Shown here in pieces: positions 4,333 to 62,723 of a stretch of DNA of 64,000 bases. A model generated the notes under the pieces. The model had not been told where the DNA came from and searched no databases. It saw only the letters and a program-made list of their open reading frames with translations. Origin of the DNA: Octopus vulgaris (Eukaryota). The DNA lies in NCBI GenBank assembly GCA_951406725.2, contig OX597817.1:15128001-15192000 (forward strand). Direction: 5' to 3'. Numbering within the stretch: position 1 is the stretch's first letter; every line of letters starts with the position of its first letter. Made by a program: the position numbers and the translations under genes.

Positions 4333-31896
<27,564 letters not shown>

Positions 31897-39563: not shown

Positions 39564-42238
39564 TCATCATCATCATCGTTTAACGTCTGTTCTCCATGCT
39601 AGCATGGGTTGCACGGTTCGACCGGGGATCTGGGAAGCCAGAAGGCTGCACCAGGCTCCGGTCTTATCTGGCAATGTTTCTACAGCTAGATGCCCTTCCT
39701 AACGCCAACCACTCCGTGAGTGTAGTGGGTGCTTTTTATGTGCCACCTGCACTGGTGCCAGGCGAGGCTGGCAACGGCCACGGTCGGATTGGTGCATTTT
39801 ACGTGCCACCTGCACGGAAGCCAGTCGAGGTGGCACTGGCTTCGGCCACGATTCGGACAGTGCTTTTTACGTATCTCCAGTCCAGGGGTCCTGGCATCTG
39901 CCGGGTGCAAGTCATAGGATTGGTTCAATTTCGATTTCGATTTCACTTGCCCCAACAGGTCTTCGCAAGCAAAGGGGGGTTGGCATAGGTGCCTGTCGTC
40001 GGATGAGGTTCAATATCGACTTCGCTTGCTTCAACAGGTCTTTGTGTGTCCAAGGGAGGAAAGGCATGCATAAGTGGGCTGGACTCACTTGTCCAGCCTG
40101 GTCTTTTCACGCACAGCATATTTCCAAAGGTCTCGGTCGTTGGTCATTTCCTCAGTGAGACCTAAAGTTCGAAGGTCGTGCTTCACCACCTCGTCCCAAG
40201 TTTTCCTGGGTTTACCTCTTCCACGGGTTCCCTCCACTGCTAGGGAATGGCACTTTTTCACACACCTATCTTCATCCATTCTCGCCACATGACCATACCA
40301 GCGCAATCGTCTCTCTTGCACACCACAACTGATGCTCCTTAGGTCCAACATTTCTTTCAGGGTACTAACGCTCTGTCGAGCATGCACACTGATATTACAC
40401 ATCCATCAGAGCATACTGGCTTCATTTCTCGTGAGCTTACGCATGTCCTCAGCAGTCACGGCCCATGTTTCACTGCCATGTAGCATGGCTGTTCGTACAC
40501 ATGCATCATACAGTCTGCCTTTTACTCTGAGCGAGAGGCCTTTAGTCACCAGCAGAGGTAAGAGCTCCCTAAACTTTGCCCAGGCTATTCTTACTCTAGC
40601 CGTTACACTTTCAGCACCCCCACCCCCACTACTGACTTGGTCACCAAGATAACGGAAGCTATCAACTACTTCTAGTTTTTCCCCCTGGAAAGTGACGGAA
40701 GTTGTTTTCTGCAGATTTTCAGAGGTTAATGCTCTCGAGCATCTGCCACATACAAAAACTATTTTCCTAGTTAGCCTTCCTTTGACATTGCTGCACCTCT
40801 TATGTGTCCATAGCTTACACTTGGTGCATCTTATAGAGTTTCTACCTACGCCTTTTCTACAGATCGAGCAGGGCTATCTACCTGAAGGCGTTTGTGATTT
40901 GTCTACCTTCCTACTTATTACGACTTTGGTTTTAGCTAGATTGACTCTAAGGCCCTTCGATTCTAAACCTTGCTTCTACACCTGAAACTTCTCCTCCAGT
41001 TCTGATAGTGACTCAGCAATAAGGGCAAGGTCATCAGCATAGAGGAGCTCCCAGGGGCATCCTGTCTTGAATTCCTCCGTTATTGCCTGGAGGACTATGA
41101 TAAATAGGAGGGGGCTGAGGACTGAGCCTTGGTGGACCCCTACCTCTACCCGGAATTCTTCACTGTACTCGTTGCCAACCCTTACCTTACTAGCAGCGTC
41201 CCTGTACATGGCTCGCACAGCTCTCACTAACCATTCATCTATCCCTAGTTTCCTCATTGACCACCAGATGAGGGATTGGGGGGATCCTGTCGAAGGCTTT
41301 CTCCATGTCAACGAAAGCCAGGTACAGGGGCTTATCTTTGGCTAGGTATTTCTCCTGCAGCTGCCTTACCAGGAATATAGCATCAGTGGTACTTTTCCCT
41401 GGCACGAACCCAAACTGCATCTCATCTAAACTAACTCTCTCTCTAATTAGTTGGGCTATGACCCTCTCTGTAACCTTTATTACCTGATCCAACAGCTTGA
41501 TACCTCTGTAATTATTTGTATCTAGGGTGTCACCTTTACCTTTGTAGCAGTTGACTATTATGCTGCTACACCAGTCATTGGGTATGACTCCTTTGTGTAT
41601 CACCTGATCAACTATATGGGTGACTAGGCTATAGCCGACACTACCAGATATTTTGAGCATCTCTGCAGTGAAACCTGATGGGCCTGGAGCTTTCCCTGTC
41701 TTCATGCTTCTAATTGCCTTAACTACCAAGGAACTATCAACTCTGATAGCTGGTCCCTCTGTTGGGTCAACGTTCGGCAGACTCTCTTTATCCCATTCAT
41801 TCTCTTTATTCAGCAACCTTTCATAGTGGCGTCTCCAAACCTCTCTCTTTGCATCCTCATTTAGCGCAAGTGAACCATCTTCCATGCGAACACACTTCTC
41901 TCCCACCACATCACGATTCTCTCTCACACACTGTCTTGCAACGCGAAACACCTCCAGTCTTTGGTCCTCACAGCGCAGAACATTGGCAAATTTTTTCTTA
42001 TCTGCTTCCCCTCTGGCTAAATAGACCTGTCTCCTAGCTTCCCTTTTAGCAGTCTGATACAATTCCCTGCTACCACCATTCTTCCAGTGCTTCCAAGTCT
42101 GTCTCTTTTCTCTAATAGCCCTGTCTACAACACTGTTCCACCACCACGTTACCTTGGGACGAGAGGGGACCTTGCACCAGCCACAGATCTGGTCAGTGGC
42201 TCTCAGCAGGTTGTCCCTTAGAAACGTCCAGTTGCCCT
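39564..42238 (-). mobile_element. RTE-clade LINE, 5'-truncated, decayed ORF (RT + PHD finger + C-terminus), structured 3' UTR, (GAT)n tail
   Basis: RT motifs KAPGPSG, NYRGIKLL, QFGFVPGKSTTDAIF, AFVDMEKAFD, GVHQGSVLSPLLF, LLYADD; C-terminal RLRWYGHVARM...GTRGRGKPRKTW; frameshift near 41280; stops at 40976 and about 40874. Confidence 0.93.
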
Positions 42239-43944
42239 CTCTCTCTCTCTATATATATATATATATTCATAAATGAATATATATATACGTTGAATGTAAT
42301 GTTATTTCTTATTGGAAACAACTTTGGTGGCTATACCAGAAAAAGGAGCTATTTTTAGCACTAGAGTTAACCACTTAGCAGTAACTCTCTTATATTTAAG
42401 TATATATATATATATATATAAATGCCAGAACACTTGTTGGTTCAGTGATATTGCTTTGCTATGCAATGGTATTGATGTATTCAATAGATAAAATGGTGTG
42501 TTATAAAACCTTCAGTGATTTCTACTTGACTGAAATTCTCTTAACTTCTGATGACCATTTCAGATATCAGACTTTGGCATTTTCTAAGTCTTATATTTTA
42601 TAGAAGCTATTCTTGGTGTTATAGCAAATCTTTATTATAACTTTCCTTTGCAGGAATTACCACAAGTATATTGAAATCTTGGCTATTATTAACTTTCCAA
42701 AGTAATTATTTATTTTAACAGGGTATAACCACAACTTTGTAATGGGAAGTTGACTTAACTGGTACCTATTTTCTTAATCTTGATGCGAGAGAAAGCAAAT
42801 TTAATCCCATCAGTAAGTCATTAAATTAAATACTATAAAAAGTGTTTAGGCAAAGCCTTTGGTCTGTCTCTATTCTACTCCTTTTATGTGGAGGCACAAT
42901 GGCCCAGTGGTTAGGGCAGCGGACTCGCGGACATAGGATCGCGGTTTCGATTCCTAGACGGGGCGTTGTGAGTGTTTATTGAGCGAAAACACCTAAAGTT
43001 CCACGAGGCTCCGACAGGGGATGGTGGTGATCCCTGCTGTACTCTTTCACCACAACTTTCTCTCACTCTTACTTCCTGTTTCTGTTGTACCTGTATTTCA
43101 AAGGGCCGGCCTTGTCACTCTCTGTGTCACGCTGAATATCCCCGAGAACTACGTTAAGGGTACACGTGTCTGTGGAGTGCTCAGCCACTTACACGTTAAT
43201 TTCACGAGCAGGCTGTTCCGTTGATTTGGATCAACCGGAAACCTCGTCGTTGTAACCGACGGAGTGCTTCTTAAACTCCTTTTATTCATGGTGATTACTG
43301 TATTAAGCAATTAAATATATCTTCTTAAAATTATCAAAAATAACAAATCTAAGACAGTTTGTAAGTTGTCTTTTCCATTCTTCAGCTTTGCAATCAGAAA
43401 TCTTCAATTTTTGTTTCATGTCATGTGAACTAAAAAACAACAAAAACAAAAGCCTTTTGTGAATTAAGGAAAATCTTGACTGAAACCTTCTTTTGAATTG
43501 TATAGGTAAATTATCTTTATGTTGCAATAATCATCATCATCATCGTTTAATGTCCATTTTCCATGCTAGCACGGGTTGGACGATTTGACTGAGGACTGGT
43601 AAACCAGATGGCTGCACTAGGCTCCAATCTGATCTAGCAGTGTTTCTACAGCTGGATGCCCTTCCTAATGCCAACCACTCTGAGAGTGTAGTGGGTGCTT
43701 TTTATGTGCCAGTTTCAAATTTTGGTACAAGGCCAGCAGGTATGGGAGAGGGCTTAAGTTGATTAAATTGTGCTGGTGTTCAACTGGTATTTATTTTATT
43801 GACCCTGAAAGGATGAAGAGCAAAGTTGACCCCCAGCAGAATTTGAACTCAGAATGTAAAGATGGATGAAATGCCACTGAGCAATTTGCTCAGCATGCTA
43901 ATGTTTCTGCCAGCTTACTGCTTTATATGTTGCAATAATACTGA

Positions 43945-54975: not shown

Positions 54976-55283
54976 TTATCGTTCAGATTTTTGACCAATA
55001 GAGTCTCTGGACACTGTTGACCTTAATTTATATCTTCCACTCGGGATGCTCTGAAGTACATGAGTTGCACACAGTGCATTAGGGAATATTGCCAGGATAG
55101 TTTTACAATCAGAAACTTGCAGGTTGCTTGTGTCGGTGTTAGAAAGCTGACTGCTATCATGTGGGACATAATGTAGGGTGACCCCCTGACAGGTCAAATC
55201 TTTTAATAGTTTTTCAACTTCTCCTTGACGAAGCTTTGGACAGAGATCATATACTTCCAAAACATTACTTCCTGCAACATTCC
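54976..55283 (-). CDS. R3HDM-like last coding exon (C-terminal RRM-like domain)
   Basis: tacag|GGAATGTT...CGATAA; ORF 54976..55296. Confidence 0.88.
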
Positions 55284-58200
55284 CTGTAGAAAACACAGTA
55301 AGAGAAATGATACATTCATTAGAAATTAAAAAGAAAAAAAAAAAAAGAAAAGAAAAAGGAATATTTGATTTCTAACAAACTTTTTAAATATGAACTGTAT
55401 ATATAGTAATGAACCAGGATTACAATGAAAGAATTAAAACTATTTTTCTAAGTAAGGATTAGCTGATACCGTTATGGTGTTTGCATTCAAAAGATTACAC
55501 TATATTATATGTGAAATGTAGGAGTTACGGAGATGTACTTGCATAGCAAGTGATTTGATCTGAGATCGTGTGCTGGAACGAAAACAATTGCAGCATGGAA
55601 GGTGTTTGTAAGCCATTTAAGAGACACACATATTCCGTTCGATTCACTTCAACATTTAAGTTTAATTTGTCAAAATATTTTCGTCGCTAAAATCCGCGAC
55701 CTGTTCACTGACAAAAATCCATGCTGCATCACGGATTTTTGTCAGTGAACAGGTCGCGGATTTTAGCGACGAAAATATTTTGACAAATTAAACTTAAATG
55801 TTGAAGTGAATCCAACGGCTTTTGTGTGTTTCTTAAATGGCTTACAAACACCTTCCACGCTGCAATTGAAATGTAGGAGGATGGTTGTTTATTCACTTCA
55901 ATATTTTACTAAAAAAACCATGAAGAATGTTATGATTTTTAATGTATATGGTATTAAGAAAGTTCATTTAGAAAATTCAAGTGGATTACACAAATAAAAC
56001 TGATCCTAGTGGAATAAAGTCAAAGTCAACTCAAGAAAAATAAATTCAATATATTTTTTGAAAATTTCAAAATTCATGTAACTTCATAACTGTGCGACAT
56101 AAATGATATGAATTTATCAAGTAGAGTAGCATAGCCTGTCTATGGATACAACATAATACCAGTGGCAACATTTGAAATTGTCACATTTGGGTCATTAAAC
56201 CACCATCTTACAAACTAAACAACTGCTTTTGATTGCATAAGTTGATTAACAGATTATTATATTTGGTTTTCATATCAAGGGCTGTGAAGCGGCATAAATA
56301 GTAGGTAGGAAGTCACAGTGAATGCCTCAATGTATTTAGTTCCGTCCACCTAAGTTCTAAGTGAAAATTCTGCCATGGATGACTTTGTCTTTTGTTCTTC
56401 TAAGATCAATAAAGTATCAGCCACATACTTAAGTTAATCTGACAGACCAAACTCATTCTTTTCCCCCAAAAGCCTTATGATTAACCCTTTAGCATTTAAA
56501 CCAGCCATATCCGGCCAAAAATATTCTGCCTGTTTTATGTTCAAACTGGCCAGATCTGGTCTCTCACACCAACCCTACAATATCGTTTTAAAAATTAACA
56601 GCTACCTCATCAAAATCTCATAGCTACAAGATAATGCATGATTAGTTCAAAATAATGTGGATGAAGAAGCATTAATTTTGGCAGAATAATGCGAACACTA
56701 AAGGGTTAAATGTAAGAAATTACATATCTCTCTATAGTATAAATAATATATTGTAATTAAATTTATCTACGGAAATGAAAGTAAATTTCCAAATAAATTA
56801 GATGCTGAAAGAAATGCGTTTCATACCTCTTGAGTCTGCGTCATTACCAGTAGATGATTGGTTCCCTGTGCAACAGTCTTTGCTAATACCACGTGGTGAT
56901 TTTTTGTTTTTAACTTTATTTCCAATAGAGTTATTAGTGTTACCAACAACCCCAAAGCTGCTGTTATACTGGCAGTTTGGAGGACTGAAACGACAGAGCA
57001 AGAAAAGAAAAGAAGACAATGATAGCAGTGCCTGCAAATAGCAAAAAGACAAAGTTGGAAGAAATGCTACAACATAAAAGAATATTAGGAAATGACATGA
57101 TATTCTGGTCAGCTAGTCCATACACAAATTGAACAGGTAAATTTACAAATCCTTTGTATTGCACTTTCGTTATATTTATAATGACAAAATAGAAAAATTT
57201 AGCTAAACTACATTTATCTTTCTTTAATGTTTGTTTTTTAAGGATTAACCTAATCATAATTATCTTTATAGATTTCCTGGGGGTTCTTAGTCAAACATCT
57301 TTTGAAGAAGACCACATCAGGAATTTTGCAGAACAAATATATAAATGTAAAAAAGATAACATGTTTTATCAGAATGTTTTACATAAATATTGAAAAATGA
57401 GAAAAAAAAAAAAAGACCTTAATTATAAAACTAGATTGAAGAAATGAATAATTGAATTGTTATAGAAATCTAATTTGATTTTTTTAATTTACAAGGAAGA
57501 AAGAAATAGCTTGATTGTTCAAAGAGGAAGAAGGAAAACAATACCGAGTTCGTTGATGATTCAATGGTAAAGGTTGAACTTGTGGGCGGAATCCTGATGG
57601 ACTAATGAACCGCAAAGAATCCGCTGTCAATTACAAGAGAACATAATTTATGAGTAAGTCTGCAGGGTGAAAAAAAGGGGATAGGTGTGTTTGTGTATGT
57701 GTGTGTTTTTAGGTGAGCATTGGATTACAATTAAAAGGTTAGAATTTGAGATTTTCAATCAGAAATGAAAAAAATAAAAAAGTTTTAGGCTACTTATTTG
57801 AAAAATGTTTCAAGCTATAATTTTATAATCTTTTTTAATAATTTTTACTCAGATATTATTTTTCTTTTTCTCTTTACATAAAATGTTTTTCTTAGTTAAT
57901 TATCCTGTTAGTGGGCAGTTTATATCTCCCTTATAGGCTAAACTGATTTGGTATTTTGTTTTTTTTATCATTAACAGATTTTTTTTCTTTCCATATATAC
58001 AGATTTAAAAAACAAAAACTTCATCACAAAAATTTTAATACAAACAAATTTCAAGTTAACACTTGGACTGAATGCCTTACAATAATATTTAGTAATATAT
58101 TTTGTGAACTTAGTTCAAATTCCTGGATCAACTGTCTTTCATCCTACTAAGATTGGTGATGGTAACATACACTGGTTTGGTTGGGTCAACCAACTGTTCC

Positions 58201-61200: not shown

Positions 61201-62723
61201 CTGCTGGGTCTTCTCACGCACTTGGAATAAGACCACTAAGACATCAATATTAAAATAGGACAGAAATATTAAAATGAGGCGAAGGACTTCATTTGAAGAG
61301 TACTGTTATATTTCATTGAGGTTTGCATCCTTCACCAATGTACATTATTAAAAGACACACACACTCATACAAATATGTATAACAAATTTCTATACAATTT
61401 CTGTCTATCATATTCTTTCCACAAAATATTGGTCAATTTAAGGCTACATCCCAAAGCCCCATGATTGCATAGCAAACTTCATAACTATACAGCTATAATA
61501 CATAAACCATTCTAGCAGAGCTATACCTATTTCTTTATTACCCACAAGGGGCTAAACACAGAGGGGACAAACAAGGACAGACATAAGTATTAAGTCGATT
61601 ACATCGACCCCAGTGCATAACTGGTTATATTTAAAAAGGATTGAAAGGCAAACTCAGAGCATCGGTGGAATTTGAACTCACAATGTAACGCAGACAAAAA
61701 TACCGCTAAGCATTTCGCCCGGCGTGCTAATGTTTCTGCCAGCTTGCCGCCTATTCTAGCAGAGCTATACCAATCTTGTTCTCAAATTTCTCCTTATTTT
61801 TTAAAAATTCTTGGTTAGACCTTTGCTCCACAACAAAAAGAACAGTGTATTCCAACTGTGACCTTACCTGTTGATATGCAGCAGTAGGTTGAGTACAACT
61901 AGTTTGTACTTGGTTTGTAGCAGTGGAATTACCGTATAAAATTTGCCTCGATGCACCTGGTAGTTCATTAAGACTATCAGTCTGTTGTTGCTGCTGTTGT
62001 TGTTGCTGCTGTTGCTGCTGCTGCTGCTGTTGCTGTTGTTGTTGTTGCTGACTCAAACTTACTGATCCTAACTGTTGTGATAATTCAGTCATTCCATTGG
62101 AATCCTGCTCAAATATTCAAACAATTATGAACAGATATGATATATTCTGTTTACACACACACACAGATATATATATATATATATATATACAAGATAAGAA
62201 AATGGAGAAATACATCTAAATCAAATATCAATTACCAGATAATACTCAATCACATACTTTATTAAACCACCACATAAGAGACTGTAGGGTTAAATATAAA
62301 AAGCAGAACAAATCAGTGTACATAAAGGAATGTACATAAAAAAGTGTACATAAAAGAGTAATGTTGTATAATAAGTAGAATATATATAAAAAAGAGAATA
62401 TAAATATAAGTATAGATTACATCTTACAGCTGTTTCGGCCATGTAGATAAGTATGTCTCATTTTACCAATATTAGCCAATAAAGTATGTGATTGAGTATT
62501 ATCTGATAATTGATATTTGATTTAGATGTATTTCTCCATTTTCTTATCTTGTATTAGTAATTTGTGGTAAATCATTTTACCTTTGCCCATATAATACAAT
62601 AAATGAATTGATTGCATCGCAATCCTTAACATTTATGTATTAACTTTGTTGGGTACTTCACTAGCAGTATATTGGATATATGTTATCCATTAGAGGGTTG
62701 CATTTACAACCCCTATCTCAATT

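Follow-up and report, generated by a model that had tools for sequence, protein, structure and literature searches.

Penelope-like elements (PLEs) provide the closest described parallels to the insertion reported here. Typically, these elements include truncated copies in inverted orientation that have a tail on one side only (PMC8557442, PMC3846280), a head-to-head layout is among their described insertion forms (PMC8557442, PMC3846280, PMC4209133), and in Schistosoma pairs of minimal hammerhead ribozymes lie on opposite strands 100-700 bp apart (PMC4209133). The tail has been traced to the stretch between two RT start sites in PMC11167929, which also describes hammerhead cleavage as aided by protein and as dispensable for insertion in vitro. 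The origin of the inverted ends is called open in PMC3846280. For the ribozyme core, the only natural covariation of the 3-8 pair reported in the available parts of PMC3088659 and in the text and supplement file 2 of PMC4209133 is U3:A8. The exchange of C3:G8 for G3:C8 has been engineered: the C3G/G8C double mutant partly rescues activity (PMC11167929), and an engineered G3-C8 swap is reported to do worse with C17 than with G17 (PMC3884650, data not shown there).

In the window, by which we mean the whole 64-kb stretch of Octopus vulgaris DNA that was analysed, an insertion of 342 bp (55525-55866) lies between two direct repeats, TGAAATGTAGGAG, that form a 13-bp TSD (Table 1). A sequence-only reading of this locus had described the TSD, 136-bp arms with a perfect inner part of 80 bp, a 12-nt spacer and the elements of a hammerhead, all of which were recovered at the same coordinates. 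The arms pair perfectly over 55641-55720, with about 6-8 mismatches farther out, and the palindrome folds at -239.5 kcal/mol (z -28; 0/100 shuffles equally stable). The same reading had called the insertion almost entirely a palindrome, which holds for the inverted arms and not for the 60 bp of unpaired tail outside them; its placement of the element 300-600 nt upstream of the last exon is corrected to 241-582 nt, and the acceptor follows the cut site at a distance of 389 nt. The insertion consists of two pLTR ends, of ~200 nt (tailed) and 147 nt (tail-less), joined head to head. Its arms are 94-100% identical to other genomic copies of the element, which indicates that the insertion is young. 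A 17-mer hammerhead core pattern occurs twice in the window, once per strand, against 0.09 expected. The palindrome sequence is not specific to this locus, as the genome contains 1,836 exact matches to a 34-mer spanning the hammerhead motif (control 0). We put at roughly 80% the reading that the insertion is a doubly truncated, head-to-head pLTR copy of a high-copy PLE, likely made from two RNA templates, and that the G3:C8 hammerhead likely works for the element rather than for the host gene.

Table 1. Features of the insertion and of the adjoining host gene (positions within the window).
Feature	Position	Strand	Remarks
Last coding exon of host gene	54976..55283	-	
Host intron	55284..56826	-	last coding intron of R3H/ARPP21-like gene, GT-AG; contig splice joint
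Left TSD	55512..55524		13 bp
PLE tail	55525..55584	-	3' extension of one arm only, between two putative RT start sites; read as tail partly on the basis of PMC11167929 (portion available)
Left arm	55585..55720	-	tailed pLTR copy; sense is the minus (pre-mRNA) strand
Minimal type I hammerhead	55666..55715	-	G3 55708, C8 55703, U17 55673; predicted cut 55673/55672
Spacer	55721..55732		12 nt; head-to-head junction of two pLTR 5' ends, near putative RNA start
Right arm	55733..55868	+	tail-less pLTR copy; sense is the plus strand
Second minimal hammerhead	55738..55787	+	G3 55745, C8 55750, U17 55780
Right TSD	55867..55879		

The PLE origin that had been proposed for the insertion was borne out by longer copies, in which the same pLTR stands behind an ORF with RT and GIY-YIG. 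Going upstream from the pLTR, these copies hold a ~1-kb microsatellite-rich 3' region followed by the ORF. For example, at locus L168 the frame is open over 1,025 codons and includes an RT with YVDD, the same pLTR lying ~1 kb downstream, and at locus L092 the GIY-YIG domain PF01541 was found with E 2.6e-5; the window copy itself is without the ORF. The translated endonuclease domain has a CCHH motif with two Cys between GIY and YIG, and the RT-EN linker carries C-x3-C-x2-C, which fits the CX2-5CxxC motif defined in PMC8557442 and found in the Neptune or Nematis clade. The layout of EN+ PLEs is also present, with direct or inverted pLTRs, an optional one-sided tail and a variable TSD, and most of 30 loci have TSDs of ~10-13 bp and targets that are AT-rich or consist of (TA)n. 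Locus L092, where two truncated copies (1.8 kb and 1 kb) lie head to head and one of them is tailed, is a larger version of the layout in the window. Judged by its sequence motifs, as these are defined in the available part of PMC8557442, the parent is an EN+ PLE of Neptune/Nematis type. Of the 82 homologues recovered, almost all are without a name.

Other hammerhead-bearing PLEs were also encountered. A young, homogeneous family (loci L182-L196, L206 and L207, e.g., L184:5383-5435:+), at ~51% to the window element on the amino acid level, has the core CUGAUGC, in which C replaces the conserved A9, and a non-palindromic stem III. Another PLE copy (L181:3071-3122:- and 2551-2602:-) carries a U3:A8 hammerhead with a 4-nt palindromic stem III.

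Each arm of the window insertion presents stem I, GUGAACA, an extra G, a 5-bp stem II, GAA, AAUAUU and U17. Set against the consensus C3 U4 G5 A6 N7 G8 A9 / G12 A13 A14, the arm differs at positions 3 (G) and 8 (C) and agrees at the other core positions, and in isolation it folds into stems I and II at -15.4 kcal/mol (z -2.1 and -2.7). Rfam returned no hammerhead match on the insertion; its miRNA and sRNA matches, all under the gathering score, were set aside as hairpin artefacts. The sequence-only reading had interpreted the motif as a minimal type I hammerhead in which a double swap keeps the 3-8 pair, an interpretation that gains weight from covariation in homologous families. In the genome-wide motif and covariation check that had been proposed for it, the 3-8 pair is Watson-Crick in 10/10 family representatives, with G:C in four, C:G in five and U:A in one, the four G:C rows being a single lineage. 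Across this alignment 90.8% of cells are paired, 7/13 pairs have changed on both sides and 1/500 shuffles scored as high, a figure that comes from 10 hand-picked related rows and is not a probability. The homologous pLTR families of the same genome align at scores of 145-189 against shuffled maxima of 107-116, partly inflated by shared terminal TA repeats, and their core states are C3:G8, C3:G8 with A9C, or U3:A8. C3:G8 accounts for 906 matches there, mostly in one family, and three divergent C3:G8 copies share stem II of the G3:C8 family. Compensatory stem changes, together with the C3:G8 and U3:A8 states of the homologous families, support a real hammerhead fold.

Within the lineage, G3:C8 is kept in 1,836/1,903 motifs of the young subfamily and in 1,786/2,056 motifs of the older subfamilies, which have a 9-nt loop II, and it persists where loop II and the bases upstream have changed. 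No C3:G8 ancestor was found inside the lineage among the non-G3 motifs of the older subfamilies (0/89). From these sequence counts, G3:C8 is the fixed state of the lineage, in at least 3,600 motifs. A natural G3:C8 core is apparently unreported, a provisional statement: neither such a core nor any octopus PLE hammerhead was found in the literature searched, outside which lie the survey of PLE hammerhead variants by Lunse et al. and supplement file 1 of PMC4209133, and the available part of a 2026 retrozyme preprint holds nothing on natural G3:C8. Among 100 listed of the 181 non-C8 older motifs, about 54 are G3:G8 against 11 with A8, counted by eye. Eleven of the listed G3:G8 rows cluster on C16, where a group from one older subfamily occupies about 0.6-5.0 Mb (L169 at 4.86 Mb); this cluster may have been amplified locally or may represent an intermediate stage of the swap.

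Cleavage by the octopus hammerhead is predicted to be weak and to proceed as a dimer or with protein help. Copy breaks number 13 at the cut site and 15 at the adjacent base, against 4-11 at each of seven other positions, as counted by eye in 100 listed of the 122 copies that lack the sequence just upstream, with ~23 indel rows set aside. Cleaved RNA as the template was considered and rejected, as there is at most a weak bump of copy ends at the cut site.

Foremost among the rival explanations, and quite possible even though we lean away from it, is that the motif is a hammerhead relic with little or no catalytic activity that has been retained for its RNA structure, e.g., for RNP binding, with G3:C8 being structural or a chance compensation. 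U17 is the slowest of the bases permitted at the cut site, and copies beginning at the predicted cut site show no clear surplus. The propagation of a G3:G8 sub-lineage suggests that the 3-8 pair is not strictly required, the related young PLE family carries A9C, and PLE minimal hammerheads are described as cutting poorly in vitro (PMC4209133, portion available). A relic is harder to reconcile with the behaviour of the 3-8 pair, which belongs to the catalytic core and has stayed Watson-Crick through three different states, and with the fact that most motifs are G3:C8 in each of the amplified subfamilies examined.

Short palindromes that retain both loop motifs number at least 393 genome-wide, comprising 291 young/young, 64 older/older and 38 mixed pairs, where the pattern for mixed pairs admitted a second older loop (6/38) that is absent from the older/older count. 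Close inverted pairs occupy 11/28 distinct loci taken in order of position (L031-L060). In all 36 close inverted pairs of L001-L060 exactly one arm is tailed, and in two of these the other arm is cut shorter; tailed arms end at about unit position 200-209 and the others at 143-152 or shorter. The tail is on one arm in 27/30 mixed pairs, on neither in 3/30 and on both in 0/30, and it may sit on either subfamily arm (16 vs 11). Toward the junction, 82 distinct arms reach AGATG, of which 36 extend farther into the element and 46 break there. The base preceding the break is G in 35 arms, C in 9, and T and A in one arm each, at a position where the element reads C or T. The opposite arm could be the source of some of these G, and some palindrome junctions have an extra G on both arms. 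The AGATG ends with their extra G fit, at the level of sequence, a reverse-transcribed cap or terminal addition at an RNA start; the putative start resembles a 3' splice site too. A palindromic master element had been suspected from best matches sharing the exact junction and was rejected: the sample had been selected for that junction, which occurs at only ~40 loci (70 strand matches), and other junctions vary.

The mixed-subfamily arms, the pile-up of arms at the likely capped start and the lack of any two-tailed pair together favour two RNA templates. Under this model, the element RNA would begin at a capped site ~15 nt ahead of the hammerhead, and the RT-endonuclease would nick both strands ~13 bp apart. 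One cDNA would be primed at the distal start site, and so include the tail, and the other at the proximal site without it; both would run off the RNA 5' end, and their joining by microhomology would yield a palindrome flanked by a TSD. Uncut RNA would be the main template.

It appears unlikely to us that the inverted arm arises when a single nucleic acid folds back and primes itself, the proposal made for rotifer PLEs in PMC3846280, with mixed arms produced by later gene conversion or template switching. Self-priming predicts identical arms, whereas some mixed pairs are expected if two cDNAs are copied from two RNAs. The arms are concordant in 355/393 palindromes, and the ~90% with same-subfamily arms would also be given by a single template; moreover, private variants are common to both arms of the mixed pairs L013 and L030, which hints at conversion or template switching. 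However, in 38 pairs a subfamily marker of several bases distinguishes the two arms, the spacer is found in both orientations relative to the tail, and either arm can reach the RNA start, at some junctions with the extra G on both sides. We retain the two-template reading, and propose tentatively, at a little short of even odds for the whole, that the lineage fixed a working G3:C8 hammerhead, a mirror image of the almost universal C3:G8 core and invisible to standard searches, and that the palindromes record two-template insertion, in which a dimeric RT would copy two separate capped RNAs from different start sites and join the cDNAs head to head.

With regard to the host gene, the last exon has a 96% match to an R3H-domain ARPP21-like protein of Argonauta, although an exact search with the exon gave no match, and 55283 is joined to 56827 in contigs of two RNA-like runs, of four runs examined. 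The spliced contigs have depths of 355 and 100 versus ~7-16 in the unique intron, contig depth being a poor reflection of expression. The same intron holds a second high-copy repeat at 56477-56713 with inverted ends TTAA-CCC...GGG-TTAA and very high depth in 4/4 runs, which resembles a piggyBac-type MITE. Elsewhere in the window are a probable host-gene exon with a glutamine run of ~22 residues (61751-62116, minus strand), an exon of an AAA ATPase, presumably VPS4-like (18843-19100, plus strand), and a LINE reverse transcriptase broken over several frames, presumably RTE-like (40085-42248, minus strand).

The sequence-only reading had argued that the antisense arm, transcribed first, would sequester the hammerhead, and the predicted energies agree (-240 kcal/mol for the duplex versus -15 for the hammerhead fold). 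Its further suggestion of a switchable, host-regulatory role found no support, given the many like insertions, the single copy per strand in the window and the splicing of the intron. With at least 393 short palindromes in the genome, the "lock" is a matter of insertion geometry. Within the host pre-mRNA, the hammerhead would be hidden in the 136-bp duplex, and dimer formation by a motif of this kind should require another sense copy; the window copy is probably inert apart from being dsRNA. It is plausible that the duplex is an ADAR/Dicer substrate that yields editing or small RNAs. Letter differences within the element, considered as an editing signal, recur in large DNA-like runs and so stem from other copies; neither editing nor RNA ends can be read from contigs. 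That the host has exapted the insertion as a switchable self-cleaving regulator of the R3HDM-like pre-mRNA is highly improbable: its location within the last coding intron and an almost perfect duplex that may well suit ADAR would speak for it, but this is one among hundreds of similar insertions and a young one, the dimer partner is absent from the window, the duplex outweighs the hammerhead fold ~15-fold and the intron is spliced. For the host gene, it looks like an ordinary PLE insertion. A foldback assembly artefact can practically be dismissed, for although long palindromes are a known artefact class and no contig of the four runs spans the whole insertion, the TSD is present on both sides, the tail is one-sided, the arms carry mismatches, hundreds of like loci each have their own TSD, and contigs of three runs reach 23-29 letters into the element from the flanks, just below the 31-letter match threshold.

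With its thousands of copies, the natural G3:C8 core offers a ready test of the 3-8 tertiary pair, and it implies that surveys based on CUGANGA overlook whole families of PLE ribozymes. Likewise, the mixed-subfamily arms constitute a genomic test of how PLE inverted ends form, one that favours two templates.

Compared with EN+ PLEs of Neptune/Nematis type, as far as PMC8557442 was available, the octopus element shares an RT with C-terminal GIY-YIG, the Cys linker motif and CCHH, as well as the hammerhead pLTR, the inverted truncated copy, the one-sided tail and the (TA)n bias. It differs in its tail, ~60 bp versus the 30-40 bp described there, and in very short two-arm palindromes being a frequent product; mixed-subfamily arms find no mention in that part of the paper. 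Poseidon PAc of Anolis (PMC11167929, portion available) has in common two internal RT start sites that define the tail, AT-rich targets and an uncut-RNA template, but belongs to another PLE clade and has a canonical core, and head-to-head products are left unexplained there. The metazoan PLE minimal type I hammerheads described in the accessible portion of PMC4209133 share the extra base between 9 and 10.1, G10.1-C11.1, a short palindromic stem III and nearby opposite-strand pairs; their consensus is CUGANGAH with C3:G8 and a U3:A8 variant, in contrast to the octopus core GUGAACA (G3:C8) with G as the extra base. Finally, the engineered C3G/G8C hammerheads, in what was available of PMC11167929 and PMC3884650, have the same swapped pair and are reported to be partly active. 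The octopus swap is natural, exists in thousands of copies and is accompanied by U17, whereas the engineered mutants are disfavoured by C17 (PMC3884650); the U17 of this lineage may be permissive for the G3:C8 swap.
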